Shown: piece by piece, positions 189-61,746 of the stretch
Numbering within the stretch: the first letter of the stretch is position 1
Layout of the letters: each line of letters starts with the position of its first letter
NCBI GenBank assembly: GCA_903860135.1
Contig: CAIOPG010000006.1
Coordinates: 21,117-85,116, forward strand
From: Candidatus Omnitrophota bacterium
Lineage (GTDB): Bacteria; Omnitrophota; Gorgyraeia; Zapsychrales; Fredricksoniimonadaceae
DNA length: 64,000 nt
Reading direction: 5' to 3'
Notes under the pieces: model-generated
What the model was told of the DNA's origin: nothing
What the model saw: only the letters and a program-made list of their open reading frames with translations
The model's database searches: none
Position numbers and translations under genes: made by a program

Positions 189-284
189 TTTTTTCTTTTT
201 ACACAGCCATATTTTTAAGTTATGGTATTTTATTCCAGATGATCGGTCATAACCGTTCACGGATAACCATTAGGGAGGGTTGAT

Positions 285-4293: not shown

Positions 4294-4909
4294 ATTTATT
4301 TCCGGGCTTTCTTCAAATGAACGCAAGATACTTACGGTCGCGTCCTTGTTTGTTCTTTTTGCTCTTTTCGACAGGCTTCTGGTGGGGCCTTCGTTGGGCC
4401 GGATGAAAGAACTCGACGAAAGCATCGCCAAAGAAGAAGATACTGTCCGCAGGAATCTTCGTTTTCTGGGTTACAAGGAGCGCATTGTCGGGCAAGCGGC
4501 CGCTTTCCGTGATTTCTATACGCAAGAGGTGCGCAGTGAAGATGAGGTTATTGCGGATTTCCTGAAAAAGATGGAAGGCATGGGATCGCAGGCGCAGGTT
4601 ACCTTGTCGAAGATATCGCCTGCCGGTCAGGAAGCGCAGAAGGATTATATCAAATATTTTGTGACCATGGATTGTACGGGCAAGCTTGAGAATCTCATGA
4701 CTCTTGTCTATACGATCAACAATGCGCAGGAATTGATCAAAGTTGAGAAAGTCAGTTTTTCCGGCAATTCGCGCGGAGCTGATACCGTCCAGGCTAACCT
4801 GACGGTTTCCAAAATGATCATCGGCGTAGATCCTTCCGTCGAAGCCAAAGCCCTTGTGCATGAAAAAGAGGTTGTCAAGGCCGAGGTCAACGCGGACATG
4901 GCAAAATGA
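4283..4909 (+). CDS. GspM/PilO-like bitopic inner-membrane assembly protein
   Basis: N-terminal TM helix and about 180 aa periplasmic domain. Overlaps the upstream gene by 11 nt. Called by context; direct similarity is weak. Confidence 0.4.
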   Translation: MISKFISGLSSNERKILTVASLFVLFALFDRLLVGPSLGRMKELDESIAKEEDTVRRNLRFLGYKERIVGQAAAFRDFYTQEVRSEDEVIADFLKKMEGMGSQAQVTLSKISPAGQEAQKDYIKYFVTMDCTGKLENLMTLVYTINNAQELIKVEKVSFSGNSRGADTVQANLTVSKMIIGVDPSVEAKALVHEKEVVKAEVNADMAK

Positions 4910-5700
4910 TCCCCTTCTGGCACCGGGCTTTTGCCTTGTGCGTCCTTTTTTTATGGGTATCCTCTGTTTGTGTTTCTGCCCTTCCATTAAGCCGGGAACA
5001 GTTATTTCAGCTGGCCACCATCGCGGCGGGAGAACATCAATTCGAACGTGCCATTGAACTTTTTCAGAAGGTCATTGAGAAAGAGCCTGCGTTCGCGCCA
5101 GCTTATAACGGGATCGGGCTTGTTCATCAATCAGACGAGAATGGTTCGATGGCTGAAGCGCTCCGCTATTTCAGGCTCGCTGTTGACATAGATCCGCAAT
5201 ACATTGAAGGTTGGAATAATCTGGGGCGTACATATTATACCCAAGGGAGTTTTGTAGAAGCGGAGCAGGCTTTTTTGTCCTCACTGCGCCTGAAACCCGG
5301 GCAAACAGATATTGAATTTTCCCTGGGCTGGGATTATCTTCTGGGGCAGTCCCGTCCAGATGAGGCCATTGATTATTTTGATAAAGTGATCGCGCATCAG
5401 GATAATCCCATGATCTATTACGGGATGGGGCTGGCGAATCTCCTTAAAGGCGATCGGTTAAAAGTGATCGAGGCTGTGACGCAATTACGCCGCCACCAGC
5501 GGGAAGAACAGGCTGTCCGCCTTGAAACCATGCTCAGGGAAAATGTCCTGATCAATTCCAAACCGGGGTTGCCATTGGTGACGGGTACGAAAGAGGATGA
5601 GTCATTGTTTGATCGTCAGCTTAAAGAGCTTGAGGCTAAAGGGTATAATGGCCAGGGTAAGGAAGGTATCAAGGTTCGTCTGAAAGGACCTTTATTGTGA
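4906..5700 (+). CDS. Secreted TPR-repeat protein
   Basis: Signal peptide then TPR-like repeats (AYNGIGLVH..., GWNNLGRTYYTQGSFVEA...). ATGA overlap with the upstream gene. Confidence 0.55.
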   Translation: MIPFWHRAFALCVLFLWVSSVCVSALPLSREQLFQLATIAAGEHQFERAIELFQKVIEKEPAFAPAYNGIGLVHQSDENGSMAEALRYFRLAVDIDPQYIEGWNNLGRTYYTQGSFVEAEQAFLSSLRLKPGQTDIEFSLGWDYLLGQSRPDEAIDYFDKVIAHQDNPMIYYGMGLANLLKGDRLKVIEAVTQLRRHQREEQAVRLETMLRENVLINSKPGLPLVTGTKEDESLFDRQLKELEAKGYNGQGKEGIKVRLKGPLL

Positions 5701-6836
5701 AGAAGAACTTTATCGTCTGTGTTGCGCTGGGGACGCGTCCTGAGGCTATCAAGCTTGCGCCTGTGATCATGGCCTTGCGTGCCACCTCGGGGGTCACGGT
5801 GCGCGTGCTTGTCACGGGACAGCACCGTGTCATGATGGACGAGGCGCTGGCGGTGTTTGGCATCACCCCTGATCATGATCTGAATATTATGCGTAAAGGC
5901 CAGGCCCTGTTTGATGTCACCGCACGTATCCTTCAGGGGGTGCCGCGCGTCCTGGCGCAGGAACCGGTTGACCTGATGGTCGTTCAGGGGGACACGGCGA
6001 CCACCTTTGCCTGTGCCCTGGCGGCGTATTATCACCGTATCCCGGTGGCGCATGTTGAGGCGGGGTTACGGACGGGAGATAAATACAGGCCTTTTCCTGA
6101 AGAAGTAAATCGGCGTTTGACCGGTGTCCTAGCAGACCTTCATTTTCCGCCAACGCCGCAAGCAGAGCAGGCACTCTTGCGCGAAGGGGTTGCCCGTCAG
6201 CGGGTGATCATGACCGGCAATACGGTGGTCGATGCGCTTCGCCAGGCGGCCGTGGCCAAACAAGGTTTTACGCATCCGCTATTGAAGACACTCGATGCGT
6301 CTGGCCGCAAGCTGGTGCTGGTGACCTTGCATCGGCGGGAGAGTTTCGGTGATGGGTTGCGCCAGGTCCTGCTGGCCTTGCGGGATATCAGCGTACTGCC
6401 CGGCGTGGATGTGGTGTATCCGGTGCATTTGAATCCGCAGGTGCGCGCGCAGGTCAAGGAAACGCTGGCCGGCGGGAAGGTGCATCTCCTGGAACCTTTG
6501 ACGTATGATCAATTTATTCTTTTGATGAAGAAAGCGCGCGTGATCGTGACGGATTCAGGCGGTATTCAGGAAGAGGCTTGCGCGTTAAGAAAGCCGGTGC
6601 TTATCACCCGTGAGACAACGGAACGCCCGGAGGCTGTCGCGTCGGGGTTTGCGGAACTGCTTGGGTTTGACCGCCCCCGCATTACGGCTGCCGCTGAGCG
6701 ACTCCTGACAGATGAAAAATATTACCGTGAACGCACGCGCCATGTGAATCCTTTCGGTGACGGAAAAGCGTCTGTACGTATCGCCAAGGCGTGTTTGAGT
6801 TACCTTAAAGAAAATCAATCCCGAGGTAAAATATGA
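5697..6836 (+). CDS. wecB: UDP-N-acetylglucosamine 2-epimerase (non-hydrolysing)
   Basis: Motifs VALGTRPEAIKLAPV, VTGQHR, HVEAGLRT, DSGGIQEE. GTG start overlaps the TPR gene stop (GTGA). Confidence 0.9.
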   Translation: MKKNFIVCVALGTRPEAIKLAPVIMALRATSGVTVRVLVTGQHRVMMDEALAVFGITPDHDLNIMRKGQALFDVTARILQGVPRVLAQEPVDLMVVQGDTATTFACALAAYYHRIPVAHVEAGLRTGDKYRPFPEEVNRRLTGVLADLHFPPTPQAEQALLREGVARQRVIMTGNTVVDALRQAAVAKQGFTHPLLKTLDASGRKLVLVTLHRRESFGDGLRQVLLALRDISVLPGVDVVYPVHLNPQVRAQVKETLAGGKVHLLEPLTYDQFILLMKKARVIVTDSGGIQEEACALRKPVLITRETTERPEAVASGFAELLGFDRPRITAAAERLLTDEKYYRERTRHVNPFGDGKASVRIAKACLSYLKENQSRGKI

Positions 6837-7528
6837 TATCCATTGTCGTTCCTGCGTATAACGAAGAAGAGGTTATTGTGCGTTTCCTGGAAGCATGTGT
6901 CCGGGACATCCGGCGCGACCTGCCTTTTGAGATCGTGGTCGTCAATGACGGCAGCCGTGATAATACGCGTGAACTGGTGCGCGGGTTTACGGCCAAGTAC
7001 GCGTTCATCCGTCTCGTGGACCACGAGGTCAACCGTGGCCTGGGGAAGGCACTGGAAACCGGCATCGCGGCGGCGCGCGGGGATGTTATTGTCACCATGG
7101 ATTCAGACCTGACCCATCCGCCGGCCATGATCCGTGAATTGGCAGCCGGCCTCAAGGATGCGGATATCTGCATCGCATCACGTTATGTGAAAGGCGGCGG
7201 CATGAAGGATGTCCCTGCCTGGCGCGTGTGGGTCAGCCGTTTGGCGAACTATCTGTTCGATCTGATCTTCTGGACGAACATCAAGGATCTTTCTTCCGGT
7301 TTCAAGGCATACCGCGCCCAACATCTGAAGAAGGCGCCGATCATGTCCAACGGATTCGAGTGCCAGATGGAGATCATGCTTTATTTTATCAAGAACAAAC
7401 TGCGTTCGCGTGAAATCCCGCTCATGCTCAAGAACCGTGAATTTGGCACGTCCAAGTTCCAGTTTGTCAAGATGGGGATGAAGTATGTGCGCAGCCTCAA
7501 GCGTTTCCTCGTCTACCGCTGGTCATGA
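6833..7528 (+). CDS. GT2 polyprenyl-phosphate sugar synthase (DPM1/ArnC/GtrB-like)
   Basis: Motifs ISIVVPAYNEEE, VVNDGSRDNT, DSDLTHPP. ATGA overlap with wecB. Confidence 0.85.
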   Translation: MISIVVPAYNEEEVIVRFLEACVRDIRRDLPFEIVVVNDGSRDNTRELVRGFTAKYAFIRLVDHEVNRGLGKALETGIAAARGDVIVTMDSDLTHPPAMIRELAAGLKDADICIASRYVKGGGMKDVPAWRVWVSRLANYLFDLIFWTNIKDLSSGFKAYRAQHLKKAPIMSNGFECQMEIMLYFIKNKLRSREIPLMLKNREFGTSKFQFVKMGMKYVRSLKRFLVYRWS

Positions 7529-7529
7529 T

Positions 7530-9182
7530 ATGAACCGGCCTGTTTTTTCATGGTTGACGGTGAGATCTTTTCAGATCGGGCTTATTGCCCTCGGGTTGGT
7601 GTTGCGCTGCATTCATTACGTCGAGAACCGCTCGTTCTGGCAGGATGAGCTATGCCTGGCGCTGAGCATTGTCAACCGTTCGTTCACGGAAATATTCCAT
7701 AACACCCTTCTTTTTCCTGATTTTGCCCAAGCACCGCTGTTGTTTCAATTCATGGTAAAGATCTTTGCCGGTGTGTTCGGCAACAATGAAATGGCACTCC
7801 GGTTTTTTCCGTTTGTGACCGGGGTCGCCGCGCTTTTCCTTGCCCGGCGTTTTTTTAATCGCCTGCTGGCACCCATCCCTGCCACCCTGGCGCTAGGCCT
7901 TTTCGCCCTGGCCGAACCGCTTGTTTATTTTTCAGCAGAACTCAAACCGTACGGCGTTGATGTTTTTGCGGCGTTGTTGGTGTATGAAATGTTTTTTGCC
8001 TTGAAGGAACGCTGGACATTGCGGCATTTGGCTGTTTTTATGGCGGGTGGAGCCTTGGTGATCTGGCTGTCGAATGCCATGCTCTTTATTCTTGCCGGAG
8101 CAGGGCTTGTGTTCGGCCTTGATCATCTGAAGCGGCAGGAATGGTCTAAAGTGCGTCAGCTGGCGATGGCTTATGGTCTATGGCTGGTTAGTTTTTTAAT
8201 CTTGTACAAGGTTTCGTTGAGCGGGATGCTCAATCATGACCTGGTGAGGAACTGGCGTCTGGCAGGCGGGTTTTCGCCCGAACCTGCGTTCTCGTTGGGC
8301 TGGCTGGTGTGGATCGCCAAGGCTTTTCTGGATATGTTCCGTTCACCCTTAGGGCTCGGCTGGACGGGGTTGATGGCGGTCTTCTTCTTCTGCGGTTGCT
8401 GGTTTATTTATCGCCGGGACAGGTTGCTTCTGTGGCTATTAATGGCACCGCTCTTGCTGGTGTTGTCGGCTGGTGCTTTCGACAAGTACCCCTTCTTTGA
8501 ACGACTAGTTCTTTTCCTTGTGCCCGCCGTGCTTGTCATCCTAGCTGAGGGTGTCTGTGGCGTTGCTTTTTCCAGGGTCTGGCAGGGGCGGGCCTGGGGG
8601 TCATGGATCGTTATAGCCGCTGTCCTGTGGTATCCTGTGTCGGCGGCGGCCTGGCAGGCGGTGCATCCGCGCGGGCATGAAGATAACCGTGCGGCCATGC
8701 AGTACCTGACAGATCATTACCGCCCAGGTGACATGGTGGCGATAAGCCCTCAAGCCCAGTATCCATTCTGGTATTACAGCCAGCGCATGGGGCTCACCAG
8801 CCGTTTGCCGATGCATCCGGCGGGGGCATCGGGAGAGCGCGTGACACCCGTGATCCAGCTGTTTCCTGATATTGTGCCTGAATCTGGGCAGGAGATGCTC
8901 GCGTTGCGCCAGACCCTCAGTGTGTATGATGCCGCCGGTTATTATCGTTCTTTCCGGCTGGCTGGGCGCTCGAGTGCCCCTTTGTTTGTCCCCGCGGCAT
9001 CGCCCGCGATCCTCAAAGGCATGGGCCGGGTATGGGTCTTCTTGTCGCATCACAATAATGCCCGTTACCCGTTATTTGTGGATCAGGTGTTTTCACGTGC
9101 CGGAGAGCGGCTGGATTACTTCGAACGGCCTGGTGTTTGTGTTGGCCTTTATGACGTTCCTTTGGCCGATAAGAAAAAGTAA
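7530..9182 (+). CDS. Polytopic GT-C glycosyltransferase of the ArnT/PMT (COG1807-like) family with a C-terminal periplasmic domain
   Basis: More than 10 predicted TM helices. A QDE motif lies in the first loop after TM1. Sits 1 nt after the GT2 stop. ATG at the MNRP codon was chosen over the upstream in-frame ATG at 7485, which overlaps the GT2 gene. Confidence 0.6.
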   Translation: MNRPVFSWLTVRSFQIGLIALGLVLRCIHYVENRSFWQDELCLALSIVNRSFTEIFHNTLLFPDFAQAPLLFQFMVKIFAGVFGNNEMALRFFPFVTGVAALFLARRFFNRLLAPIPATLALGLFALAEPLVYFSAELKPYGVDVFAALLVYEMFFALKERWTLRHLAVFMAGGALVIWLSNAMLFILAGAGLVFGLDHLKRQEWSKVRQLAMAYGLWLVSFLILYKVSLSGMLNHDLVRNWRLAGGFSPEPAFSLGWLVWIAKAFLDMFRSPLGLGWTGLMAVFFFCGCWFIYRRDRLLLWLLMAPLLLVLSAGAFDKYPFFERLVLFLVPAVLVILAEGVCGVAFSRVWQGRAWGSWIVIAAVLWYPVSAAAWQAVHPRGHEDNRAAMQYLTDHYRPGDMVAISPQAQYPFWYYSQRMGLTSRLPMHPAGASGERVTPVIQLFPDIVPESGQEMLALRQTLSVYDAAGYYRSFRLAGRSSAPLFVPAASPAILKGMGRVWVFLSHHNNARYPLFVDQVFSRAGERLDYFERPGVCVGLYDVPLADKKK

Positions 9183-9261: not shown

Positions 9262-9290
9262 TTGAAAACCCCATTAGTATATGGTATCTT
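9262..9290 (+). promoter_or_regulatory. Putative sigma70 promoter with an extended -10: TTGAAA, 17-nt spacer, TGgTATCTT
   Basis: -35 TTGAAA at 9262-9267. TGnTATCTT at 9282-9290. Contains the recurrent TATATGnTAT(C/A)TT motif. Confidence 0.35.
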
Positions 9291-9307
9291 TTCCTTTGTG
9301 AAGAAAG

Positions 9308-9414
9308 TCTAAGGGCAAACTACTTGAAAAAGTAGGGCGCAAAGCCGTGAGCCTGAACCCGTCGTGTTGCGGGAAGGTTGTCTGGTTGCCGATGTGAGTA
9401 CGTTAACTCACGGC
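9308..9414 (+). promoter_or_regulatory. c-di-GMP-I (GEMM) riboswitch aptamer candidate
   Basis: AAGGGCAAACuacuuGAAAAAaguagGGCGCAAAGCCgugaGCCUGAACC...GUUGCCGAUG closely parallels the Vibrio Vc2 aptamer GGGCAAACcauucGAAAgagugGGACGCAAAGCCuccgGCCUAAACC...GUUACCGAUGG. A GNRA-type hairpin is present. The outer stem gccgugag/cucacggc closes the element. Confidence 0.6.
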
Positions 9415-9446
9415 AAAACCCTTCGATCTTTTCGAAGGGTTTTTTC
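9415..9446 (+). terminator. Intrinsic terminator serving as the riboswitch expression platform
   Basis: Stem cccttcga/tcgaaggg (9419-9426 and 9432-9439), 5-nt loop, then a run of six T. Lies 54 nt upstream of the 9500 start codon. Confidence 0.7.
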
Positions 9447-9499: not shown

Positions 9500-11140
9500 A
9501 TGGGGCGTTATTTATCGATAACCTTTGCGGCTACAGTCGCAATTATTTCTTTATTTCCTTTACATAATGTTGCGGCGAGGGAAGATATTCCTATGATGAT
9601 GCCGCAGGAACAACCCATGATGCCATTCCCTTATCAAATGCCCGTTAATCCTGGTGTGCCTGTGCCGGCAACGGGGTCTGTTGTGCCGTTGCCCGTGCCT
9701 GTGTTGCCCAAGGGGGATGCCCTGGTTGCCTGGATGGCGTCTAATGTCAGTTCCAAGACAGGCATGTTTTTCAGTTTTCAGGTCTTACCTGAAGAAAAAG
9801 CCGAGATCTACGGTGCCATGGGCGAGGCTTCTTCTGTGCCCGGGATCGTTGAACGCACCATTGTCGAAGAAGGGCTGGATATTTACGATGGCGCTGTCGG
9901 GCAGATCGCGTTGACCGTTGCCGGCGGGGAGGATAAATTAGCAGTGGCCAGGCATCAACTGGATGTGTACTGGTCAGGAAAATTGGAGAGCCTGATCAGT
10001 ATCCGGGCAGGGTATCCTAATTATAATTTTGTTTATGATCCCAAAGATCCGGAGGTCGTGACGTCGTTGCTGACAGACGAGGGCCGGCGCGGATTTATTT
10101 TTCGTATCATCAATGCCAATGGCAACTACCTGGTGCGGGATCCCTTGGACGGCAAGGAACGGATGGCGGGTTTCCCGGAAGCACCGGATCTACACTGGGA
10201 AGACTGGAAGCCGGTTGCCGGAGAGAATGCCTGGATCGTGATCGCGGCCATGCAGTTGTATCACAAAGAGTATTATAAAGCGGATGTGGATCAATACGTT
10301 GCGCCTGAAGGACCTGTCGAACTGCGCCTTGCCGAAGAATTGGCGCGTGCGGCCATGGTCCTGCAATCGGAGACCGGCGGCATAAGGATGGCACCGATAG
10401 GGACGTACCGTGAGAATGAATTTTATTCAACGTCCACCCAGGGCCAGTGGTGGTACAACCAGATTTCGACAGAGAATAATCTTTCCTGGTACAGCGCGTT
10501 CCGGATGCTGTACCGTGTGACCAGCAAAGAGATCTATCTCCAGGCGATGCAGAAGATGGCAGGTTTCTTCAAGCAGGTTTATGATCCGGTAACGCAGACT
10601 TTTTATCAGGGGATGACCTATAAAGCAGGTGTCTGGCAGGTGAACAGCTCGAATTTTGCGGTGGATGTGCAGACCTGGGGTATTTTATCGCTCGGCGCGG
10701 CTACCATTGAAGACTGGTTCGGAGAGGGCGTTGCCTATTCATTCTGGGCGAAGGCGCGGGAATATTCGGGCACCTGTAATGATCAAGGCTTATTGATGGG
10801 CGTGGGGTATACCAAAGAAAAAGGCCGTGTTTCTGTGGAGTGGAGCGCAGGGGCGATCATGGCGGCGCGTGAACTGGCGGTATTCTATCGTAATTCCCAT
10901 CGTGAACTGGCGCAGGCCGCGGGGCACGATGCGGAGCAGATGCGTGTCGGCATGGAATTACTGCGCCGCGACCTCCCGGGAGGCCAGTCTGCTTATGCCT
11001 ATTCATCCAAACGCGGCTGGATCCCTTTTGGCTGGAATTCGCATGACCCGCGTGTCGTCAGCCTGGCGTCGACCGGTTGGATGTTCTTTGTTGACAAGAA
11101 ATTTAATCCTTTTTGGCTCGATGGCAAAGGCCAGGACTGA
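9500..11140 (+). CDS. Secreted hypothetical protein with a Pro/Met-rich linker; possibly an (alpha/alpha)-barrel polysaccharide-active enzyme (weak)
   Basis: Signal peptide MGRYLSITFAATVAIISLFPLHNVAA. AGGAGG RBS. Trp/Tyr-rich motifs (WWYNQISTENNLSWY, AWIVIAAMQLY). No confident family assignment. Confidence 0.7.
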   Translation: MGRYLSITFAATVAIISLFPLHNVAAREDIPMMMPQEQPMMPFPYQMPVNPGVPVPATGSVVPLPVPVLPKGDALVAWMASNVSSKTGMFFSFQVLPEEKAEIYGAMGEASSVPGIVERTIVEEGLDIYDGAVGQIALTVAGGEDKLAVARHQLDVYWSGKLESLISIRAGYPNYNFVYDPKDPEVVTSLLTDEGRRGFIFRIINANGNYLVRDPLDGKERMAGFPEAPDLHWEDWKPVAGENAWIVIAAMQLYHKEYYKADVDQYVAPEGPVELRLAEELARAAMVLQSETGGIRMAPIGTYRENEFYSTSTQGQWWYNQISTENNLSWYSAFRMLYRVTSKEIYLQAMQKMAGFFKQVYDPVTQTFYQGMTYKAGVWQVNSSNFAVDVQTWGILSLGAATIEDWFGEGVAYSFWAKAREYSGTCNDQGLLMGVGYTKEKGRVSVEWSAGAIMAARELAVFYRNSHRELAQAAGHDAEQMRVGMELLRRDLPGGQSAYAYSSKRGWIPFGWNSHDPRVVSLASTGWMFFVDKKFNPFWLDGKGQD

Positions 11141-11186
11141 TCGCCCTGCCTTCCTGATAGAATCCCCCCAAAAATCTGTCTGTCAT

Positions 11187-11216
11187 TTGGTACATTTGAT
11201 ATTTATATGTTATCTT
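11187..11216 (+). promoter_or_regulatory. Putative extended -10 promoter (TGtTATCTT) for paralog A
   Basis: TATATGTTATCTT at 11204-11216. Weak -35 TTGGTA. Same motif as at 9282, 46170 and 54716. Confidence 0.3.
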
Positions 11217-11258
11217 TATTTCTAGATGGATGGAGTCTATTCAAGCAAGGGATAAAGA

Positions 11259-13466
11259 TTGAATATAAGAGTGATAGCGCACAGATGCTTGATGCTTTTT
11301 TTGATGCTGACTTTAGCGGCGTCAGATGTGCGTGTCTATGCGCAGGGAGTTCCCCCACCCGGCACCCGCCTGGCCTTGAGCCCTGTTTTCGCGCCGCCGC
11401 TACTCAAGGGCATCAAGGTGTTCCGCAACGATCCTTTTCGTTTTGATTTCATTTTGGATAAGGGGGATGTCCATCAACCGCTGCCCAGCGAACTTGAAAT
11501 AAAGCGCCTGATCAAATACTTCCTCGCTTCTTTGACGGTGCCCGAGAAAGATTTGTGGGTCAATTTAAGCCCTTATGAAAAAGACCGCATTGTGCCCGAA
11601 GCCTTTGGCCAGACCGAAATGGGGCGTGACTTACTGGCTCAAGACTACATTCTCAAACAGATAACAGCGTCAGTGATTTATCCTGATGAAAAAGTCGGCA
11701 AGGAATTTTGGTCTAAAGTCTATGCCGAAGCTCAGAAACGCTACGGCACCACCGACATCCCCGTCGACACTTTCAACAAAGTCTGGATCACCCCCGCTAA
11801 AGCCACCGTCTACGAACACCAAGACGCCGCCTATGTTGTCGAATCCAGGTTAAAGGTCATGTTGGAGTCCGATTATAAAGCCGCTATAGAAAATAAGGAA
11901 TTCGCACGTAGGGGCGGGTCCGTGACCCGCCCTATTTTATTAAATACGCCCCCAGCGTCACCCGCCCCCGCCGCAGCGTGGGGCGGGCATGGGAGGGGGG
12001 ATGACATCGCCAAACAAGTCCTCCGCGACGTCATCATCCCTATCCTCAACAAAGAAGTCAACGAAGGCCAAAACTTCGCCACCCTGCGCCAGGTCTACAA
12101 TTCCCTTATCCTTGCCACTTGGTATAAGCGTAAAGTCAAAACCAGCATCATGGGCAAGGCGTACGTCGATCAGAAGAAAGTTTCTGGCATTGACATCGCC
12201 GACAAGAACGAAAAAGAAAAGATCTGGTCTCAATATGTTGAAGCTTTCAAGAGGGGTGCTTTTAATCTGATCAAGGAAGAGAAAGACACGACGACTCAAG
12301 AAATGATCCCGCGGCAGTATTTTTCCGGTGGGGCGGATATGTCGATGGAGGTTTTTGAGGTAACAGATGCGGCCATGCCAGCAGAGGTAAATATTGATAA
12401 TTGCAGTATCGTAAATGTTGATGGGGGTATGCTGTTAGTGAATTCCGGTCTATCTAATCGCAAATGGGTAACAACTGATTTATTTGAACACAATCCACGG
12501 AAGTTTATGTATTCTGTAAAAATGTCTGGCCTTGCCAGGCTATTAAAACCACCAGCACAAGGCGATCCAATTTCGTATTCACTTGCTTTGATCAGTGATA
12601 GTTATTTGAAAACATTTAATCGAGGTGGTGGTGGCAATGTTGGATTAGTCTTTGATTTTGCGGATGAGGATGTTCTGGCAATTTTGGCATCGATGAACGA
12701 TATCGCGGCCTTTGATAAGACAGAGGAGACGCAACGTGAATTCATTAAAAAACAATTAAAACGTGATCCTAGTAATGTTATGTATCAAACTATTGTTGAC
12801 AATAGTCCTCCTAGGCAGCTTGCTATTGTGCCTGAAGAATTGATTAGGGCTTCAATCAAGGCAGGAAATAAGAATAATGAAGTAATTGTTAAGAATAATT
12901 TAACTCTGCAACCTAAAGCAATTATCTTGATTGTAAGGTGTCAGGGAGGATCACGTTTGTTTCGGGAAGATGTCGATGCCTTAAAGGTTAATCCAATGTT
13001 AAGTGAGGTCTATTCTGCAATGACAGCTGGGAAATTACCAGTTGTTATTGTCGGTGAAAATGGTTCCCCATTGAAGACTGCTAGGAGAATCTTTAAGCAT
13101 ATGTTTAGGGATCTTCAGGAAACAAGACCGTTCTTTTTTGAAAAGAAGTCTGGCCCATCGCCGGCAAAGTCCGGGTTTATAGGATGGATCGGTGTGTTCG
13201 TGAAGCAAAATCCTTCTGCTATTACACGTATAGATCGTGGCCAGAAGAATAGTGACAATGCCGAGAAGCTTGGCGGTATCGACCTTGATCCGGCCAAGAT
13301 CGACTTAAGTACAAAGAATTCCGGCGGCGAAATTGCGTTCAACCTCGACCCCGCGATGCTCGCCCGTATGCAGCATGCTTCTGGGATTTCGCCTGTTATT
13401 GTCAGTGTGCACCCGATGGAAAGCCTTTCGGCATTTCTGGGGATTGTGAAGCCGGGAGGGCGGTAG
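11259..13466 (+). CDS. Secreted protein of an uncharacterised paralogous family (paralog A, 735 aa)
   Basis: Signal peptide ending VYAQ. A roughly 300-aa N-terminal domain is highly similar to the 54826 gene (LIKYFLASLT, EEDLWVNLSPYE, GTTDIPVDTFNKVWIT, LKVMLESDY, EVNEGQNFA, PR.YFSGG). The last about 40 aa also match (DPAMLARMQ / DPIMVAEFQ). The central and C-terminal portions are AT-rich. TTG start; GTG at 11271 or ATG at 11292 are alternatives. Confidence 0.8.
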   Translation: MNIRVIAHRCLMLFLMLTLAASDVRVYAQGVPPPGTRLALSPVFAPPLLKGIKVFRNDPFRFDFILDKGDVHQPLPSELEIKRLIKYFLASLTVPEKDLWVNLSPYEKDRIVPEAFGQTEMGRDLLAQDYILKQITASVIYPDEKVGKEFWSKVYAEAQKRYGTTDIPVDTFNKVWITPAKATVYEHQDAAYVVESRLKVMLESDYKAAIENKEFARRGGSVTRPILLNTPPASPAPAAAWGGHGRGDDIAKQVLRDVIIPILNKEVNEGQNFATLRQVYNSLILATWYKRKVKTSIMGKAYVDQKKVSGIDIADKNEKEKIWSQYVEAFKRGAFNLIKEEKDTTTQEMIPRQYFSGGADMSMEVFEVTDAAMPAEVNIDNCSIVNVDGGMLLVNSGLSNRKWVTTDLFEHNPRKFMYSVKMSGLARLLKPPAQGDPISYSLALISDSYLKTFNRGGGGNVGLVFDFADEDVLAILASMNDIAAFDKTEETQREFIKKQLKRDPSNVMYQTIVDNSPPRQLAIVPEELIRASIKAGNKNNEVIVKNNLTLQPKAIILIVRCQGGSRLFREDVDALKVNPMLSEVYSAMTAGKLPVVIVGENGSPLKTARRIFKHMFRDLQETRPFFFEKKSGPSPAKSGFIGWIGVFVKQNPSAITRIDRGQKNSDNAEKLGGIDLDPAKIDLSTKNSGGEIAFNLDPAMLARMQHASGISPVIVSVHPMESLSAFLGIVKPGGR

Positions 13467-13591: not shown

Positions 13592-13664
13592 GGGCCTCTA
13601 GCTCATCTGGTAGAGCAAGTGACTCTTAATCACTTGGTACCGAGTTCGACTCTCGGGAGGCCCA
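13592..13664 (+). tRNA. tRNA-Lys (anticodon CTT)
   Basis: Cloverleaf folded by hand: acceptor GGGCCTC/GAGGCCC, D-stem GCTC/GAGC, anticodon stem AGTGA/TCACT with loop CTCTTAA, T-stem CCGAG/CTCGG with TTCGACT loop, discriminator A. Length 73 nt; CCA is not encoded. Confidence 0.85.
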
Positions 13665-13672
13665 CTATTTAG

Positions 13673-17319: not shown

Positions 17320-17383
17320 CCACCGCGGTTTGACAATGGTTTCGTTTGTGGTATAGTAAACCAAATTTTTACACTAAAATAAA

Positions 17384-46120: not shown

Positions 46121-46149
46121 GATGAAAATCATCGTTTTTCGTCAGCCCT

Positions 46150-46178
46150 TGTTTTGTAAAAGTCCCGTATGTTATATT
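46150..46178 (+). promoter_or_regulatory. Putative extended -10 promoter (TTGTTT, 17-nt spacer, TGtTATATT)
   Basis: GTATGTTATATTTC at 46168-46180, the same motif as at the other three sites. Ends at the 5' end of the structured element. Confidence 0.3.
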
Positions 46179-46179
46179 T

Positions 46180-46351
46180 CTTATAGCCGATAAAGGTAAA
46201 CCCGGGGAAACCCGGGGACACAAAGCGACAGACCTAATGTGCGCCATCGGGTAGTTGGGTGAAGGTGTTGATGGGGTTTTGTGGTTGGCGTAAGATGGTG
46301 GCTGCGTTGCCGAAGCGCGAGGGGAGATTCCCCAGCTTTTATCGGCTATAG
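46180..46351 (+). promoter_or_regulatory. Second c-di-GMP-I (GEMM)-like structured RNA candidate, with no obvious downstream gene
   Basis: GGUAAACccgggGAAAcccgggGACACAAAGCgacagaCCUAAu...CGGGUAGuUgGG...GUUGAUGG parallels the Vc2 motif blocks. A 15-bp outer stem pairs cttatagccgataaa with tttatcggctataag. The insertion is larger than in the canonical aptamer. Confidence 0.45.
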
Positions 46352-46363: not shown

Positions 46364-46394
46364 TAAAAAAGGGAGCCGTTTGGCTCCCTTTTTT
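46364..46394. terminator. Bidirectional intrinsic terminator (A-run, GC stem, T-run)
   Basis: aaaaaaGGGAGCCgtttGGCTCCCtttttt. Ends the + strand structured-RNA unit and the convergent - strand ompA/LysM gene. Confidence 0.75.
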
Positions 46395-54825: not shown

Positions 54826-56436
54826 ATGGTACAAAAAACGCTAACCTTTCGCTGGATCTCAATCTGGGTTTTGGTGAGTTTTCTGGCCACCGCCGTGATC
54901 CCGCCCAAAGTGTACGCGCAGGCACTGAACCTGCCGGCGCCCGGGGCTATGGTGGGGTTGACCCCGGCGTATGTGCCGATCCTGATGAAGGGCGTGCGGG
55001 TGCATCCCGAGAATCCGCTTCTTTTTGATTTTATTGTGGACAGCGGGAAATCAAATTTTAAAGCAGAAAGCCCGGCGTTCAAGGCGGAGTCACAGAAGCT
55101 CATCAAGTATTTCTTGGCGTCGTTGACCATCAAGGAAGAAGATCTTTGGGTTAATTTAAGCCCGTATGAAAACAACCGCATCATCCCGCAGGTACTGGGC
55201 AAGACCGAGATGGGCCGCGATATGCTGGCGCAGGATTATATCCTCAAGCAATTGACCGCTTCGCTTATATATCCCGAGAAGGACCTGGGCAAGGCGTTCT
55301 GGAACCGGATCTACACCAAAGCCAAGGAACAGTTTGGCACAACCGATATCCCGGTCGATACCTTTAACAAAGTCTGGATTACCTCCGACAAGGCAAAAGT
55401 CTTTGAACGCAACAATGTCGCTTATATCGTCGGCGCGCACCTGAAAGTCATGCTCGAATCCGATTATCAAGCTGCGCAGGCTGTTGGCGTGCGTACAGGT
55501 GATCCTGTTATCACACCCGCCCCCGCCGCAGTGTGGAGAGGGCAAGGGAGGGGGGCGTCAGAAGAACTTGCCAAACAGGTCATCCGCGACGTCGTCATCC
55601 CCGAGATCGAAAAAGAAGTCAACGAAGGCCAGAATTTTGCAATGCTGCGCCAGATGTTCTATTCGATGATCCTCGCCTCTTGGTACAAGCTCGCTTTGAA
55701 AGATGCCCTGTTGAATCAGGTGTACAGTAATAAAGATAAAACCAGCGGGGTTCTCTCCGATGACCCGGCGGTAGCCACCAAGATCTACGAACAGTACCTG
55801 CAGGCGTATAAGAAAGGCGTGTTCGATTACATCAAAGAAGATATGGACGCTGTCACCCATGACCCTCTGCCCAGAAAGTATTTCTCGGGGGGGGTCGTTG
55901 ATTTGGCTAGCAAGGTGGAAGTTGAACGTCAGTCGGGTCGTTTGAATCTGACGGAAAATACCCAGCTCATATCTTCAGTATTCCTTTTGATGGTAAAGTT
56001 TTCGTCGGTGTTGGGAGGGCGTCTTTCATTGGCCAAACATTTGTCTTTGGTTGCGCTGATGACGGGTCTGTTCGCATGTCAGCCTGCTGTCCAGCCTCCG
56101 GCTGATCTTTTCTATGATTTAAGTAATTCCGACTTGATTACTTACCCTATTCAACTTGCGCCTGCCGATGCTACAAGGGTCTTTGTTCCCTTCAAGGTGG
56201 ATCATTCTGCGGATGTCGGTGGTATCGCGCTCAATGGGAAGCTGATGGACTTGGATGTGGCCAAAGACGGGAAGGGCGTTGAGATGAAATTCGATCCGAT
56301 CATGGTGGCGGAGTTTCAGCGGGGAAATTTTACGGGGGTTGAGGGGGTTATCCTCAATATTGTTCCGATGGTCAGCCCCTTATCGTTGTTGGGTCTGGAT
56401 AAAGCTTCGGTGGAGTTGGTGTCGGCCAAAGGGTGA
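54826..56436 (+). CDS. Secreted protein of the same uncharacterised paralogous family (paralog B, 559 aa)
   Basis: Signal peptide ending VYAQA. N-terminal about 300 aa are highly similar to the 11259 gene, with nucleotide identity around 70-80% in conserved blocks. The C-terminal tail is also similar. The gene is 31 nt upstream of tpsA. Confidence 0.8.
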   Translation: MVQKTLTFRWISIWVLVSFLATAVIPPKVYAQALNLPAPGAMVGLTPAYVPILMKGVRVHPENPLLFDFIVDSGKSNFKAESPAFKAESQKLIKYFLASLTIKEEDLWVNLSPYENNRIIPQVLGKTEMGRDMLAQDYILKQLTASLIYPEKDLGKAFWNRIYTKAKEQFGTTDIPVDTFNKVWITSDKAKVFERNNVAYIVGAHLKVMLESDYQAAQAVGVRTGDPVITPAPAAVWRGQGRGASEELAKQVIRDVVIPEIEKEVNEGQNFAMLRQMFYSMILASWYKLALKDALLNQVYSNKDKTSGVLSDDPAVATKIYEQYLQAYKKGVFDYIKEDMDAVTHDPLPRKYFSGGVVDLASKVEVERQSGRLNLTENTQLISSVFLLMVKFSSVLGGRLSLAKHLSLVALMTGLFACQPAVQPPADLFYDLSNSDLITYPIQLAPADATRVFVPFKVDHSADVGGIALNGKLMDLDVAKDGKGVEMKFDPIMVAEFQRGNFTGVEGVILNIVPMVSPLSLLGLDKASVELVSAKG

Positions 56437-56467: not shown

Positions 56468-59400
56468 ATGCTGAGACATATCATCAAAAGCTTATTGGGC
56501 ATATGGTGTTTGATCCTGGGGTTGACTTGTTGTGCATTGGCAGAACCGCCACAGGTTAAGGTTGTTGACGGTGACGGCACTCTTTCCCAGACGCAGGCTC
56601 CTGCGGCATCGACAACGGATTTTACGGTGTCAGGTCATATTGTAGGTGAAACCAGCCGGGCCGACATTCTTCCTGATGAGACGTGGAATGTACGCTTTTC
56701 AAATCCAAACGACAGCTTTCTTCTTCGTGTCCTTGACCCTTCGGGTACACGCATTCTTGGGAACTTGAATATTTATTACGGGAGCTTTGTCCTGTTGAAC
56801 ACCCATGGGATCGATATAGGCGCGTTGGCGAGGGTGAATGTCAATCATGCTGTTTTTGTTGCCTCGACGATCGACATTCAAAATCGTGATTTCATAGCGG
56901 GGAAGTATGCTTTTGATGCTGCGCACGGAGCCGCCAACAGAACTGTAGTTAACCACGGTTTGATCAGGACAATGGGTTCCAGTTCGGTCGTTTTGTTGGG
57001 TCAGGCCGTTGAGAATGCAGGGGTGATTGAGGCGCCACTCAGCAAGGTTGCGCTAGCCGCTGGTGATGCCGTGACATTGAGCCTCGATGCCAATGGGTTG
57101 ATCGGTGTGGAGGTCGCGGATCCGGTGAAAAGCAAGGTCCTTGACGGGGATGGCCGTGAGGTCGCCGCGCAGGTTGCCAATACGGGGACGATCACCGCCG
57201 ATGGCGGGACTGTGTTGATTAGCGCCAGGTCCTTGAATGATGTTTTCAACCGCAGCGTGAACCTTGAGGGGCGTATTCAGGCTAATCAGGCCCTGCAAGG
57301 TGCTGACGGCACCATCAGGATCGTGGCTTCGGATAAAATTGTTAATACGGGCGTGCTGGCAACGCGCAACGGCAAGCTTTATCTTACCAGTGACGGCGCG
57401 ATAGAAACGTCGGGGCATCTGGCGGCCGGGACGCTGGTGGAGCAAGGGGCGTCATGGCGCATGGGCGGTGAGGTGCAGGTCGGGACGGCCAGCATGGACA
57501 ATGCCGACGGCGCCGCGGTTTTGAGTACGGGCAGTTATACCGGGACGTTTGAGGATTCCGGCGATATCATTGTTGACAACGACGCCCGTATCACGCTGAC
57601 CGGTGCGACCGTGTTTGGGGCGGACACGGATCCCGGGACGCAGGCCCATGATGGCAACGGCATTTTCACCATGAACACCGGGTCTTCGATCATCGGCGGG
57701 GGGCATGCCTTGACGCTGTATTCCGCCGACAGGGATTCCGCCGGGGGAGCGGCGTCGTCGGTCCTTCGCGATATCAGCGGGGTCAACGGGTTGAACCTTT
57801 ATCGTTCTTCGGCGGCAACGGCCAGTCCTGCCTATACGCTGCGTGGAACCCTGGACGCAGGGGCGTACAATCTGGACATCGACGGGGATATTGTCTTGGA
57901 TCCAGGAGGCGCGTTGACCAATGCGGCTGATATTTTTATCACGGGTAACTGGACTAATAACGGTGGCACGTTCACGCCAGGGGCGAGCAGGGTGAATTTT
58001 ATCAGCACCATAGCGGATCAGCTGATCAACGGGACTGCCGTGGCACAGGTGTTTTATGACATCAGGGTGGCCAAGGGCAGTAAGACGTTAAGCGTGGGGG
58101 GCAGTACAACGGCATTGTCCTTGCACGACTTGGCCTTGGACAGTGGCATTTTCGCGACGGGGACGGCAACGACGGTCAATGTGGCGGGCAATGTGGTCTT
58201 TAATTCATTGGCAGTGACCGGATTTAATGGATTAACGCTCGATGCCGACACGTTCACGGCCAACGATGTGGTCAATATGATCGGCAACACGGCGCGCACC
58301 TATTACCCGGTTACGGATGCCGTGCTTGATGCGATGATCGCCGGCAGTCAGGTCAAGACCTTGATCATCGGCGTGCCGTATGACCAGGATGCATATGGCT
58401 GGCTGGCCAATTACTGGGGCGGCAGTGTCCCCGTCGGGACGAACCGCGTGAATATGGTTGATCGTAATTATGTTGCGTACATCGCGCATGTGAAGGACAG
58501 GATCGCCTCGGCGGGTTCAAGCCTGAAGCTTATCGTCGAGTTTGGTAATGAGTATAACCTCCATCCGGAGTGGTTTGGCGGTGATAGCCGGAACTGGTTC
58601 TCGGCGTTGACGGCGGCGGTCAGTGCTGTTCACGCGGCCTTCGGCAACAGTGTCAGGGTTTCAACAGCCACAGGTGATATTCCAGCAGATTTTGTGACGA
58701 CCATCCGGACTGGTGTTGACCTCGTTGGCGTGAACACTTATCGTGGGTTGGGCAACACCAGTTCGCTGGTAGCTGATTGGAATACGGCATGCTCTCTGAC
58801 GGGGATGGCGACACCTCTTTATGTCTCTGAATCGGGGTTCCCCTCGTGGGTCTGGGATGGTGGAGAGGCACAGCAGGACATCAATGTTCTTTCGTTGCGT
58901 GATGAGTTCCTGAAGAACAATCTTGGCATAACGTTCATGAGTTTTGAAGATAACATGAGGAAGGGCGGCTCGTTGTTTACCCAGGATTCACGTGAAGATT
59001 ATTGGGGATGGTTGCGCGCCAACGGGACGCATAAGGCGGTGTATGACACCATGTCGGCCGCTTGGGCATTGCCGGAGTTTCAGGCCGGGGCGGCGCATAT
59101 TAATGTTGCCGGTGACTGGGTCAATAACGGTGGCACATTTACCGCGGGCACAAGCACGGTGACGTTCGATGCGTCCAATGCCGGACACATCGTTAAATCC
59201 GGGACGTCGGCGTTTGCGGATGTTGTTTTTGACGATGGGGGCAAAGGCGGAGCTTGGACAGTAGCGACGGATCCCATGCAGGTCAACGGGAATTTGTCGC
59301 TGACCAGTGGCCATGTGACCCTTGGCATGAAGCTTATGGTTGGGGGCAATCTTGACATTGTCAACGCCACACTCGATGCGGTGGGTAAGACCATTGAACT

Positions 59401-59965
59401 TGCGGGGGACTGGCGCAATGCTGGACTTTTTATCCACGGGAATAATACTGTGACGCTCACCGGAGATGACCAGACGGTAGCAGGGGACAATACTTTCTAT
59501 AATTTGACCAAGACAAGTGCTAAAGGATCGGCACTGACTTTTGAGGCTGGATCTGTGCAGGCGATCGCGGGGGCACTGACATTAACAGGGTGTTCGGATG
59601 TTTACATGCGCTTGCGTTCGGACGTTCCCGGGAAGCAGTGGAAGATGCGTGCGGCTTCGGTTGATATGCAATGGCTTGACTTGAAGGACTCCTGGAATAC
59701 TGGAGACGATATCACGCCTTTGAATTTTCTGGATAGTGGCAATAATACAGGTTATGCCTTTGATCCTGATTATCCTGCTTTATCGACGGGTATTTTCCGT
59801 TTGGATGTCCTAGATATTCATGGGTTGACGTTTAATCTGGCTGTTGCACATGAGGCTCGTCTTGCGGCGCAGTTTCTGGGGTCATCCTTGATAGAAATGG
59901 ATGTGCCGTTTCCGGGAACTCCGCCCGTTATGTTTGGTTTATCCCATAAGTTCATGGTTGAATAA
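56468..59965 (+). CDS. Two-partner secretion exoprotein (TpsA/filamentous-haemagglutinin-like) with an internal GH-A-clan-like glycoside hydrolase segment
   Basis: Signal peptide. TPS-domain-like N-terminus (SNPNDSFLLRVLDPSGTRILGNLNIYYGSFVLLNTHGIDIGALARVNVNHAVFVASTIDIQNRDF). Gly/Thr/Asn-rich beta-helix-like repeats. An internal segment has VEFGNEYN (acid/base-like) and LYVSESGFPSW (nucleophile-like). Confidence 0.7.
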   Translation: MLRHIIKSLLGIWCLILGLTCCALAEPPQVKVVDGDGTLSQTQAPAASTTDFTVSGHIVGETSRADILPDETWNVRFSNPNDSFLLRVLDPSGTRILGNLNIYYGSFVLLNTHGIDIGALARVNVNHAVFVASTIDIQNRDFIAGKYAFDAAHGAANRTVVNHGLIRTMGSSSVVLLGQAVENAGVIEAPLSKVALAAGDAVTLSLDANGLIGVEVADPVKSKVLDGDGREVAAQVANTGTITADGGTVLISARSLNDVFNRSVNLEGRIQANQALQGADGTIRIVASDKIVNTGVLATRNGKLYLTSDGAIETSGHLAAGTLVEQGASWRMGGEVQVGTASMDNADGAAVLSTGSYTGTFEDSGDIIVDNDARITLTGATVFGADTDPGTQAHDGNGIFTMNTGSSIIGGGHALTLYSADRDSAGGAASSVLRDISGVNGLNLYRSSAATASPAYTLRGTLDAGAYNLDIDGDIVLDPGGALTNAADIFITGNWTNNGGTFTPGASRVNFISTIADQLINGTAVAQVFYDIRVAKGSKTLSVGGSTTALSLHDLALDSGIFATGTATTVNVAGNVVFNSLAVTGFNGLTLDADTFTANDVVNMIGNTARTYYPVTDAVLDAMIAGSQVKTLIIGVPYDQDAYGWLANYWGGSVPVGTNRVNMVDRNYVAYIAHVKDRIASAGSSLKLIVEFGNEYNLHPEWFGGDSRNWFSALTAAVSAVHAAFGNSVRVSTATGDIPADFVTTIRTGVDLVGVNTYRGLGNTSSLVADWNTACSLTGMATPLYVSESGFPSWVWDGGEAQQDINVLSLRDEFLKNNLGITFMSFEDNMRKGGSLFTQDSREDYWGWLRANGTHKAVYDTMSAAWALPEFQAGAAHINVAGDWVNNGGTFTAGTSTVTFDASNAGHIVKSGTSAFADVVFDDGGKGGAWTVATDPMQVNGNLSLTSGHVTLGMKLMVGGNLDIVNATLDAVGKTIELAGDWRNAGLFIHGNNTVTLTGDDQTVAGDNTFYNLTKTSAKGSALTFEAGSVQAIAGALTLTGCSDVYMRLRSDVPGKQWKMRAASVDMQWLDLKDSWNTGDDITPLNFLDSGNNTGYAFDPDYPALSTGIFRLDVLDIHGLTFNLAVAHEARLAAQFLGSSLIEMDVPFPGTPPVMFGLSHKFMVE

Positions 59966-59985
59966 AGGGTGAGGTTCTTGTACGT

Positions 59986-61746
59986 ATGCGCAAAGGAATG
60001 TGGGTAATAGTTGTCATCGGATTTTGGGTGTTTTTGGTCAATGCCAGCGGAGAACTATTTGCCGCTGTCCCTGACATTGAACAGGCGAGTCAGTCTTCCG
60101 TTATAGGGAAACGTGTCCCTCAGGGGATTGAAAAGGCCATGGATGATGTCCAAGCTACGTTTAAATCCAGGATGATCAAAGAGGCACTGGATGCCGTAGA
60201 ATCTGCGTTGCAAGGTGCTTCGCCTAAGGCTCTGCCGCTTGTTCCGGATAACAACGGGGTTTCTTTTTTTGTCAGGAAGGTGCAGGTGAAAGATTCGCAG
60301 TTGTTGACAGAGACTTCCCTGGCGCCTTTGCTTGAGCCTTTTGAGGGCCACCAGCAGACGATTCGGGCGATGCAGGGTCTTGCAGATATGATCACGGCTG
60401 AGTACCGCAAGCGCGGATACCTGAGCAGCCAGGCCTATATTGCGCCTCAAGAAATAGCGGATGGCGTCTTTACGGTTTCTGTGCTCGAGGGGCGTATCGG
60501 TCGGGTCATTTTCGAAGGGAACAAGCATTATTCCACAGAGGTGCTCAGTCGTTACTGCGTTATCCATGAAGGGGATTTCTTCCGTTACCAGAAATTGCAG
60601 GAATCCGTCTTTAAGCTCAATGCGCACCCTGACAGGGTTGTTCGGGCGATCATCCGTCGAGGCAGTGCCCTCGGGCAGACGGATATTATCTTTAAGGTTG
60701 ATGAAAACAAATTGTTGGCGTCAAACCTTTTGATGGATAACCGCGGCTCGAAGCCTGTCGGTCAGCATCGTGGTGGGCTAGGCTTGCGCCGTGACAATCT
60801 GTTTGGGCAGGATGATACCCTGCGCATGGGCACCATGATCGGGAAGGCGTTCAGCTCGGGATTTGTGGAGCATGCCTTGCCCATTCAAGCGTTGGGTTCC
60901 GTCTGGAAAACAGGGGTTAGTATGGCCAAGTCCGCACCCCGGAAGCAATACAAGCCTTATCGGGTCAGCAGTACTTCCATGGATTACTGGGGCAGGCTCG
61001 AGACTAGGTTTATTACCACAGAAAGCCTTGCCCTAGATTGGCGCACAGGGATGGATATTAAAGAGAGCCGCACCATGGTGCTCTCTGGGACAGACAGCCG
61101 TGAACGGCTTAGGGTTATCCGCTTCGGGCCTACGCTGACCCTGCGCGATGACGGTGGCATGACGGTGATCGATGATCAGTTCTCGCTCGGACTTAATGCG
61201 ATGGGGGCGGTGCTGAGTAGCGGGTCTTCGCAGCGGGCAGGAGTAACACCGGCTTTCTTTGCTTCGGACTTCAGCCTTGAGCGCCTACAGCGGATGCCGC
61301 TGAAGACGCGGTTATCTTTAAAGGGAAGATCGCATTTGTCGGGTGATAAACAGCCGGCGTCAGAACAAATGCTCTTGGGCGGGGCGGACACGGTGCGCGG
61401 GTATCCTGAAGGAGACTATTTTGCTGATCAGGGTGTGTTGATGAATGCGGAATATTTGGTGCCGTTTTTTTTCATTCCTGATGCATGGAAGATGCCAGGC
61501 ACAAAGAACCGTATGCGTGATGCGCTTGATTTTGCGTTTTTTTATGATCATGGCCTCGGTTGGGTGAAGTCTCCGGTCAACGGCCAGAAAGCGTCGACGA
61601 GCTTGCGCGGAACGGGTGTTGGCGTGCGCGTACGTATGGCGGCTGATGTTTACTTTACCATGGATCTTGCCTACGCTATTGGTGCCAAGCCTGATCTGAG
61701 CGACAATCATTTCAGGATCCACTCCGCCATACAAGCTAATTTCTAG
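59986..61746 (+). CDS. TpsB (ShlB/FhaC family) outer-membrane transporter
   Basis: Signal peptide. POTRA-like region then a 16-strand barrel-like C-terminal domain ending ...IQANF. Immediately downstream of the TpsA. Confidence 0.8.
   Translation: MRKGMWVIVVIGFWVFLVNASGELFAAVPDIEQASQSSVIGKRVPQGIEKAMDDVQATFKSRMIKEALDAVESALQGASPKALPLVPDNNGVSFFVRKVQVKDSQLLTETSLAPLLEPFEGHQQTIRAMQGLADMITAEYRKRGYLSSQAYIAPQEIADGVFTVSVLEGRIGRVIFEGNKHYSTEVLSRYCVIHEGDFFRYQKLQESVFKLNAHPDRVVRAIIRRGSALGQTDIIFKVDENKLLASNLLMDNRGSKPVGQHRGGLGLRRDNLFGQDDTLRMGTMIGKAFSSGFVEHALPIQALGSVWKTGVSMAKSAPRKQYKPYRVSSTSMDYWGRLETRFITTESLALDWRTGMDIKESRTMVLSGTDSRERLRVIRFGPTLTLRDDGGMTVIDDQFSLGLNAMGAVLSSGSSQRAGVTPAFFASDFSLERLQRMPLKTRLSLKGRSHLSGDKQPASEQMLLGGADTVRGYPEGDYFADQGVLMNAEYLVPFFFIPDAWKMPGTKNRMRDALDFAFFYDHGLGWVKSPVNGQKASTSLRGTGVGVRVRMAADVYFTMDLAYAIGAKPDLSDNHFRIHSAIQANF

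Follow-up and report, generated by a model that had tools for sequence, protein, structure and literature searches.

The -10 hexamer of an extended -10 promoter is preceded, one base upstream, by a TG dinucleotide. It is well established that sigma70 makes contacts with such promoters through its region 2 and its region 3.0, and weak -35 elements are both usual for and tolerated by promoters of this kind. An extension of the TG element, the TRTG or -16 region (T-17 R-16 T-15 G-14), has also been described, and the resulting TRTGn is reported to be common in Firmicutes (PMC12641261; for the -16 region see also Voskuil and Chambliss, 2002, as cited in PMC2613000).

Our literature search found no paper on the promoters of Omnitrophota. 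The giant genes of this phylum are reported to lie beside PilZ genes and type II secretion-like loci (bioRxiv 10.1101/2023.11.21.568195). Here, we analyse a 64-kb stretch of DNA (64,000 nucleotides, referred to below as the window), assigned by homology searches to a Candidatus Omnitrophota metagenome-assembled genome, in which one short motif recurs upstream of several genes and riboswitches. From the features described below, we infer promoter function for these sites: they are probably extended -10 core promoters of the primary sigma factor (sigma70/RpoD), and they are probably copies or variants of one expression module. The promoter type itself is a textbook one, and what is new is its instance in a phylum without promoter data.

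Four sites with a common motif

Four sites of the window, each on the + strand, carry the TATATGnTATnTT motif (Table 1). Written as TATGKTATMTT, it has exactly four copies, at 9280-9290, 11206-11216, 46168-46178 and 54714-54724. A longer form, TATATGKTATMTT, matches three of the four sites, and site 3 has CGTATG instead. The preliminary description had named the same four sites; its strings were correct and all four are present, with some coordinates shifted by 1-2 nt, so that AGTATATGGTATCTT is properly placed at 9276-9290 and GTATGTTATATT at 46167-46178. Each site is intergenic and lies on the same strand as its transcription unit. The preceding genes end at 9182, 11140, 46120 and 54673, and the motif begins at 9278, 11204, 46168 and 54712, respectively.

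Table 1. Positions of the motif sites, their promoter elements and the surrounding features in the window. Transcription starts are predicted.
Feature	Position	Strand	Remarks
Fifth, looser site	221..231	+	TATGG-TATTTT; upstream of gspG (285-710); no -35
Site 1 -35 hexamer	9262..9267	+	TTGAAA; 17-nt spacer; promoter scan
Site 1	9278-9290	+	TATATGGTATCTT; TATATGG-TATCTT; start ~9297-9301
Site 1 TRTG	9280-9283	+
Site 1 TG	9282-9283	+
Site 1 -10 hexamer	9285-9290	+
Riboswitch 1, c-di-GMP-I aptamer	9304..9393	+	Rfam RF01051, 65.6 bits vs threshold 35
Riboswitch-1 intrinsic terminator (expression platform)	9415..9445	+	terminator scan and fold
546-aa secreted-looking protein	9500..11140	+	downstream of riboswitch 1, putatively controlled by it
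Site 2 -35 hexamer	11187..11192	+	TTGGTA, weak; 18-nt spacer
Site 2	11204-11216	+	TATATGTTATCTT; TATATGT-TATCTT; start ~11223-11225; PWM rank 2 in the window
Site 2 -10 hexamer	11211-11216	+
Paralog A	11259..13466	+	735 aa; family member; N-domain ~360 aa
atpB comparison promoter	17330..17357	+	TTGACA-N16-(TGTGG)TATAGT
Site 3 -35 hexamer	46149..46154	+	TTGTTT, weak; 18-nt spacer
Site 3	46168-46178	+	(CG)TATGTTATATT; TATGT-TATATT; start ~46185
Site 3 -10 hexamer	46173-46178	+
Riboswitch-2 enclosing 15-bp helix	46183-46197 / 46335-46349		fold z = -6.6
Riboswitch 2, c-di-GMP-I-GGC aptamer	46186..46315	+	Rfam RF03167, 61 bits vs threshold 59 (marginal)
Strong A-tract/T-tract terminator, bidirectional-looking	46365..46394	+	shared with the convergent OmpA/LysM gene
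OmpA/LysM gene	46413-47567	-	convergent to riboswitch 2
Site 4	54712-54724	+	TATATGTTATATT; TATATGT-TATATT; start ~54731
Site 4 -10 hexamer	54719-54724	+	poor -35 TTTCCT, 17 nt
Paralog B	54826..56436	+	536 aa; family member
TpsA-like 1165-aa protein and ShlB/FhaC-type TpsB	56468..61746	+	directly after paralog B

The earlier reading of these sites as extended -10 elements agrees with what was found, since all four have TGn followed by TATnnT in the right orientation and at the right distance from the downstream unit. The TG occupies -15/-14, one base before the hexamer (TGG-TATCTT, TGT-TATCTT, TGT-TATATT and TGT-TATATT for sites 1 to 4), and the invariant A-11 and T-7 of TAnnnT are present throughout, in two TATCTT and two TATATT hexamers. 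A consensus scan calls site 1 as TTGAAA-17-TATCTT with TG. A TTGACA-type -35 element is found at 16-18 nt, though it is weak at sites 2-4. The hexamer ends 14 nt before the Rfam aptamer start of riboswitch 1 and 8 nt before that of riboswitch 2; the distance from the end of the hexamer to the start codon is 43 nt for paralog A (TTG) and 102 nt for paralog B (ATG).

An extra conserved TATA upstream of the TG had also been noted. Part of it is not extra: T-17 and the purine at -16 precede the TG, giving TATG at all four sites, and this is the known TRTG element (-17 to -14). What stands is T-19 A-18, for which this promoter class has a real preference. A Bacteroidota-type promoter (TTTG ... TAnnTTTG, with TAnnTTTG as the -7 motif and a -33 TTTG) was considered because TATCTT is the hexamer of B. 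thetaiotaomicron (PMC12641261). It was rejected, as the sites here have the register TATnnTTT(C), with TTGACA further upstream.

When the pattern is relaxed to TATGnTATnTT, two more copies appear, one intergenic at 221-231 and one coding at 54074, inside a methyltransferase gene. The intergenic copy scores low with the flank profile described below and falls outside the top 25 in the window. A multiple alignment of the five sites showed no similarity beyond the motif, and on this ground a duplicated or mobile element was rejected as the origin of the repeats.

How far the repetition exceeds chance depends on how it is counted. In whole-window dinucleotide shuffles, 0.12 copies of TATGKTATMTT are expected against 4 observed, for a pattern that was chosen post hoc. 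In an unbiased comparison of 9-11-mers among intergenic regions, the motif comes out on top with 4 regions, and the same maximum is reached in 33 of 40 shuffles; such unbiased k-mer sharing tests within the window are thus not significant, and the window alone cannot prove more than chance. De novo motif discovery by EM was drawn towards GC-rich coding sequence or T-rich and RBS signals, and anchored profiles were used in its place. With a position weight matrix (PWM) of the flanks built from other genomes only, the four sites rank 1, 2, 4 and 5 among the 92 TGnTAnnnT sites of the window, and site 1 has the highest score (8.5).

The same promoter form at a family of secreted proteins

Two of the four sites precede paralogs A and B, which have in common a ~360-aa N-terminal domain (11259-12340 and 54826-55900) with 49% identity. 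A database entry, P0001, is 100% identical to paralog B over the queried N-terminal 360 aa. The family is restricted to Omnitrophota, with 1345 matches at E<=1e-10 in a homology search. Its members are secreted proteins, often of 800-3400 aa, in which the N-domain comes first, the C-termini vary and a short C-terminal motif is conserved; their genes often stand in tandem arrays of 2-3. The N-domain has no relative in Pfam, NCBIfam or PDB sequences, and a Foldseek search of the PDB with its AlphaFold model (pLDDT 69.6) gave no match. An exact-sequence look-up of paralog B gave no match, and that of ShlB returned only a short metagenome contig (L001) without copies of the motif.

For the comparison across the phylum we used 79 loci (L002-L080; 1.1 Mb; locus GC 35-58%) that encode family members, taken from GTDB-representative Omnitrophota metagenome-assembled genomes (MAGs). 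An N-domain HMM run on six-frame translations identified 102 family genes and is the basis on which family and non-family genes were separated. At 48 of the family genes, the 300 nt upstream contain 56 TGnTATnnT sites in all, and the consensus of these sites is tTGaca-N16/17 followed by aatATATGnTATnYTTt. At 16-18 nt upstream, 27 of the 56 have a -35 element matching TTGACA in at least four of six positions (perfectly in 10), with spacers mostly of 16-17 nt. The commonest hexamers are TATATT (14) and TATCTT (8), and TATAAT occurs once in 56. The commonest upstream hexamers are TATATG (12), which is that of the window motif, and AATATG (10); T-17 is present in 64% of the sites and R-16 in 87%. 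Outside the core the sites are unrelated (44 sites fall into 43 clusters), so that the conservation reflects selection and not recent copying.

Enrichment upstream of genes, by which the proposal of a shared motif can be judged, is pronounced. TRTGnTATnnT is found before 31 of 99 family genes and before only 8 of 315 other genes (Fisher p~1e-14), and the reverse-strand control at family genes gives 4 hits against 31. Because TTGACA usually stands 16-17 nt upstream and TRTGn is a known element, the family sites can be regarded as sigma70-type promoters. As far as sequence can tell, the motif form is the characteristic promoter of this Omnitrophota family, and on the evidence from other genomes its sharing among the four window sites is judged to be real.

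The riboswitches tie the promoter to the family in another way. For riboswitch 1, a metagenome scan with the 546-aa protein, which has no Pfam or NCBIfam match, found a single ortholog with 72% identity, in locus L081. There the ortholog is preceded by the same promoter and by a riboswitch that passes the Rfam threshold. In the alignment with the window nothing upstream is similar, GCCTTGAAA is kept in 9 of 9 positions and the mid-spacer has diverged; similarity resumes at ATATGnTATnTTTT, after which the whole transcribed leader is conserved. The gene upstream of the riboswitch-1 ortholog in L081 ends in the family C-terminal motif.

For riboswitch 2, the homolog in L062 has the same closing helix and terminator as the window. 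Its promoter is TTGCGA-N17-TATATT, in which the 13 nt TATGTTATATTTC are identical to site 3 of the window, and the sequence further upstream is unrelated. The L062 homolog is an RF03167 riboswitch (9536-9682) that, together with its family-type promoter and its terminator, stands before a family gene (region 9500-9990). A third case is found in L080, where an RF03167 riboswitch (11212-11290), with the promoter TTGCTT-N17-(TAGATGG)TATGCT, precedes an 841-aa family gene (region 11160-11360). Both the L062 and the L080 riboswitches pass the Rfam gathering threshold. Riboswitch homologs were sought by regular expression, nhmmer and Rfam, as an alignment of four sequences was too poor for a covariance model.

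The proposed linkage of both c-di-GMP elements to the two paralogs is therefore real in substance, since riboswitches with this promoter sit in family-gene leaders (L062 and L080); its form differs from the one proposed, in that the link is in cis, the elements being leaders of family genes. Such an arrangement points to control of the Omnitrophota family by c-di-GMP. Riboswitch 2 of the window is followed by no gene on its own strand and appears to have lost its gene. It is either an orphan leader or it gates antisense transcription into the OmpA/LysM gene. The sequence GCCGATAA, identical to the -10 consensus of E. coli sigma28, is present at the 5' foot of both riboswitch 2 (46186-46193) and the L062 homolog (~9527-9534). 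It forms half of the closing helix, and the helix alone explains its conservation.

The four units had been called secretion-related. This description holds for the unit of paralog B, which is followed by the TpsA/TpsB pair, and also for gspG, the gene behind the looser fifth site, whereas for the riboswitch-2 unit, where no gene follows on the same strand, it is only tentative. The TpsB protein has POTRA_2 and ShlB domains, and the TpsA-like protein has a weak, sub-threshold match to the TPS domain TIGR01901.

Some further features of the window may be recorded here. The region 1-9182, before the riboswitch-1 unit, holds a T2SS/pilus-like block in its first 7.5 kb (the end of a GspF-like gene, the GspG pseudopilin, T2SS-K and a PilM/PilN fusion) and a PMT_2-like glycosyltransferase. 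This secretion block resembles the conserved secretion locus reported upstream of Omnitrophota giant genes (bioRxiv 10.1101/2023.11.21.568195). Downstream of paralog A, the last 19 nt of a tRNA-Lys gene (13592-13664; the 19 nt at 13647-13665) are repeated exactly at 13763-13781, 116 nt downstream, and a degenerate fragment resembling a tRNA 5' part lies near 13975-14000. The repeat and the fragment may be remnants of an integration site.

Ordinary holoenzyme or dedicated factor

The following mechanism would account for the likeness of the four sites. Region 2 of sigma70 would bind and melt the -10 hexamer TAT(C/A)TT, and region 3.0 would contact the T-17 A-16 T-15 G-14 ('TRTGn') duplex just upstream of it. 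The TRTGn contact would compensate for the weak -35 hexamers of sites 2-4, site 1 having TTGAAA at 17 nt. Transcription is predicted to start ~7 nt downstream of each hexamer, which would be at the foot of the aptamer for both riboswitches and would give 5' UTRs of ~36 nt for paralog A and ~95 nt for paralog B. Promoter, c-di-GMP riboswitch leader (present or absent) and then a family gene or its neighbour would together make up one conserved expression module, held by selection on the core-promoter positions. The resemblance of the four window sites would then come from their being copies or variants of this module. As the shared ordinary RNA polymerase holoenzyme would be sufficient, a dedicated regulator would not be required.

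The preliminary description had instead read the sharing as a regulon under a special sigma factor or regulator. One half of this proposal fares well in a modified form, because the motif does mark a particular gene set, as the counts of 31/99 and 8/315 indicate. The other half does not, since the architecture, TTGACA-N16/17-TATnnT, is that of the primary sigma factor. Put in its strongest form, the regulon would have the whole block T-19 A-18 T-17 A-16 TGnTATnYTTT(CA) read by a dedicated trans factor. The factor might be a sigma70 paralog of group 2 that prefers a -10 and discriminator of its own, or a DNA-binding regulator over the -10 region, and it would co-ordinate the family genes, the c-di-GMP riboswitch leaders and the neighbouring secretion genes. 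We regard this as rather unlikely.

Promoters of other genes bear on this question. In the window, atpB (ATP synthase A-chain) has TTGACA-N16-TGTGGTATAGT, i.e. a housekeeping promoter with TRTGn, and the promoters of tRNA-Ala, tRNA-Lys and tRNA-Pro in other MAGs have TGnTATAyT, with TGn only. Housekeeping promoters thus also use TGn, and no special sigma factor is required for it. What these atpB and tRNA promoters share with the family is only the core TGn/TRTGn, and the flanks are missing. Among sites with a good -35 element, TG at -15/-14 is found in 15 of 31 family and 18 of 83 non-family candidates, and A at -8 in 2 of 31 and 32 of 83, respectively, in a comparison set that is small and contains false positives. 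The flank score, computed with each locus left out in turn, is 3.8 for the family, against -2.5 for those other TGn promoters whose -35 is usable (p = 5e-5). From such comparisons, the predicted family promoters are a distinguishable subclass, marked by TATATG, by TATnYT instead of TATAAT and by a T-rich discriminator. They are not set apart from primary-sigma promoters, as the -35 element, the spacing and TAnnnT are canonical and only -19/-18, -8 and -6 to -3 differ.

Several features speak for a dedicated factor. Positions -19/-18 and -6 to -3 are conserved beyond the canonical contacts, and other TGn promoters lack this; A at -8 and TATAAT are systematically avoided; and the four window sites stand out when scored with the PWM built from other genomes. 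Added to this is the phylum-wide concentration on one family (31% versus 2.5%). The rarity of TATAAT (1 of 56) does not obviously follow from selection for maximal sigma70 strength, and a promoter subclass bound so closely to a single family could have a sigma paralog or regulator of its own. Against this, both the -35 element and its spacing fit the primary sigma factor, and the block is neither palindromic nor repeated, unlike usual operators. The motif is absent from about half of the family genes, no candidate factor gene adjoins the sites, and a crude pattern search found no sigma gene in the 1.2 Mb examined. Similar promoters also stand before toxin-antitoxin and other unrelated genes: high-scoring family-type look-alikes precede Gp49/HigB-like, PIN, TacA, AbiEii and Fic genes and a GAF-ANTAR regulator.

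The best non-family matches (L054 13506, L080 10472, L077 8361, L002 14778 on the - strand, and L079 8003) precede genes of the toxin-antitoxin or abortive-infection type that adjoin family genes.

It is improbable, at roughly one chance in five, that aatATATGnTATnYTTTca forms a dedicated class through which a specialised sigma70 paralog or tuning factor switches the family, the leaders and the secretion genes as a set. If it did, there would be a two-layer circuit, of promoter class and c-di-GMP, over the cell-surface or prey-contact arsenal of ultra-small, probably host-dependent bacteria.

Two other explanations fare worse than a dedicated factor. The motif could be an RNA element of the transcribed leader, with the real starts further upstream. 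Such an element would fit the observation that conservation runs unbroken from the motif into the riboswitch, so that the motif borders a conserved transcribed block. In both comparisons between genomes, however, nothing is conserved before the -35 or the extended -10 element, and the spacer between the two is free to vary; many family sites have TTGACA at a constant distance of 16-18 nt upstream; the closing helix of riboswitch 2 does not include the motif; and the preceding gene ends only ~40-100 nt from the motif at three of the four sites. This makes an RNA element very unlikely. Chance resemblance of AT-rich intergenic sequence, with which the non-significant k-mer test on the intergenic DNA of the window would agree, is scarcely credible in view of the exact matches in the orthologous loci L081 and L062, the position of all sites on the coding strand at promoter distance, the family enrichment over 80 loci with its reverse-strand control and the high ranks given by an independently trained PWM.

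Comparison with known promoters and riboswitch units

Read as sigma70-type extended -10 promoters, the sites provide a usable, cross-validated promoter model for Omnitrophota, tTGaca-N16/17 with a TRTGn extended -10 and TATnYT, which ties the promoter to a family of >1300 members of unknown function. In practice, the model can be used for annotating transcription units and riboswitch-controlled genes in MAGs, and it suggests which genes are expressed together. Control of some family members by c-di-GMP would agree with the position of giant genes near T2SS-like loci and PilZ (bioRxiv 10.1101/2023.11.21.568195).

The window and its relatives can be set against four described systems. The first is the -10 region of E. 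coli sigmaS promoters, which was considered as a model and not adopted. E. coli sigmaS prefers TATACT, an AT-rich discriminator and C at -13. The family promoters resemble them in the pyrimidine at -8 and in the T/A-rich discriminator, as opposed to the housekeeping TATAAT. They differ in that C at -13 is absent (T or G is found here) and TG is at the standard -15/-14. RpoS is not known from Omnitrophota.

The second is the c-di-GMP-I (GEMM-I) unit. Here as there, the predicted start precedes the aptamer by a few nucleotides, and the expression platform is an intrinsic terminator. In contrast to the known units, the genes that would be regulated belong to an Omnitrophota-specific family without a known domain, and riboswitch 2 of the window lacks a same-strand downstream gene.

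The third comprises the galP1-like extended -10 sigma70 promoters of E. coli. The likeness extends to TG one base before TAnnnT, to the spacing, to the orientation relative to genes and to a -35 element that is weak or dispensable, here at three of the four sites. In the sites described here, however, the hexamer is TATnYT and almost never TATAAT, the positions -19/-18 and -6 to -3 are also constrained, and the host is an uncultured phylum of the PVC group without mapped promoters.

The fourth is the TRTGn promoter of Firmicutes (Bacillus subtilis). It is matched by TATG at the four sites, by TGTG at atpB and by the element at 31 of 99 family genes. Whereas TRTGn is general to many promoters in Firmicutes, in Omnitrophota it is found in 2.5% of the other upstream regions and is concentrated on one family.
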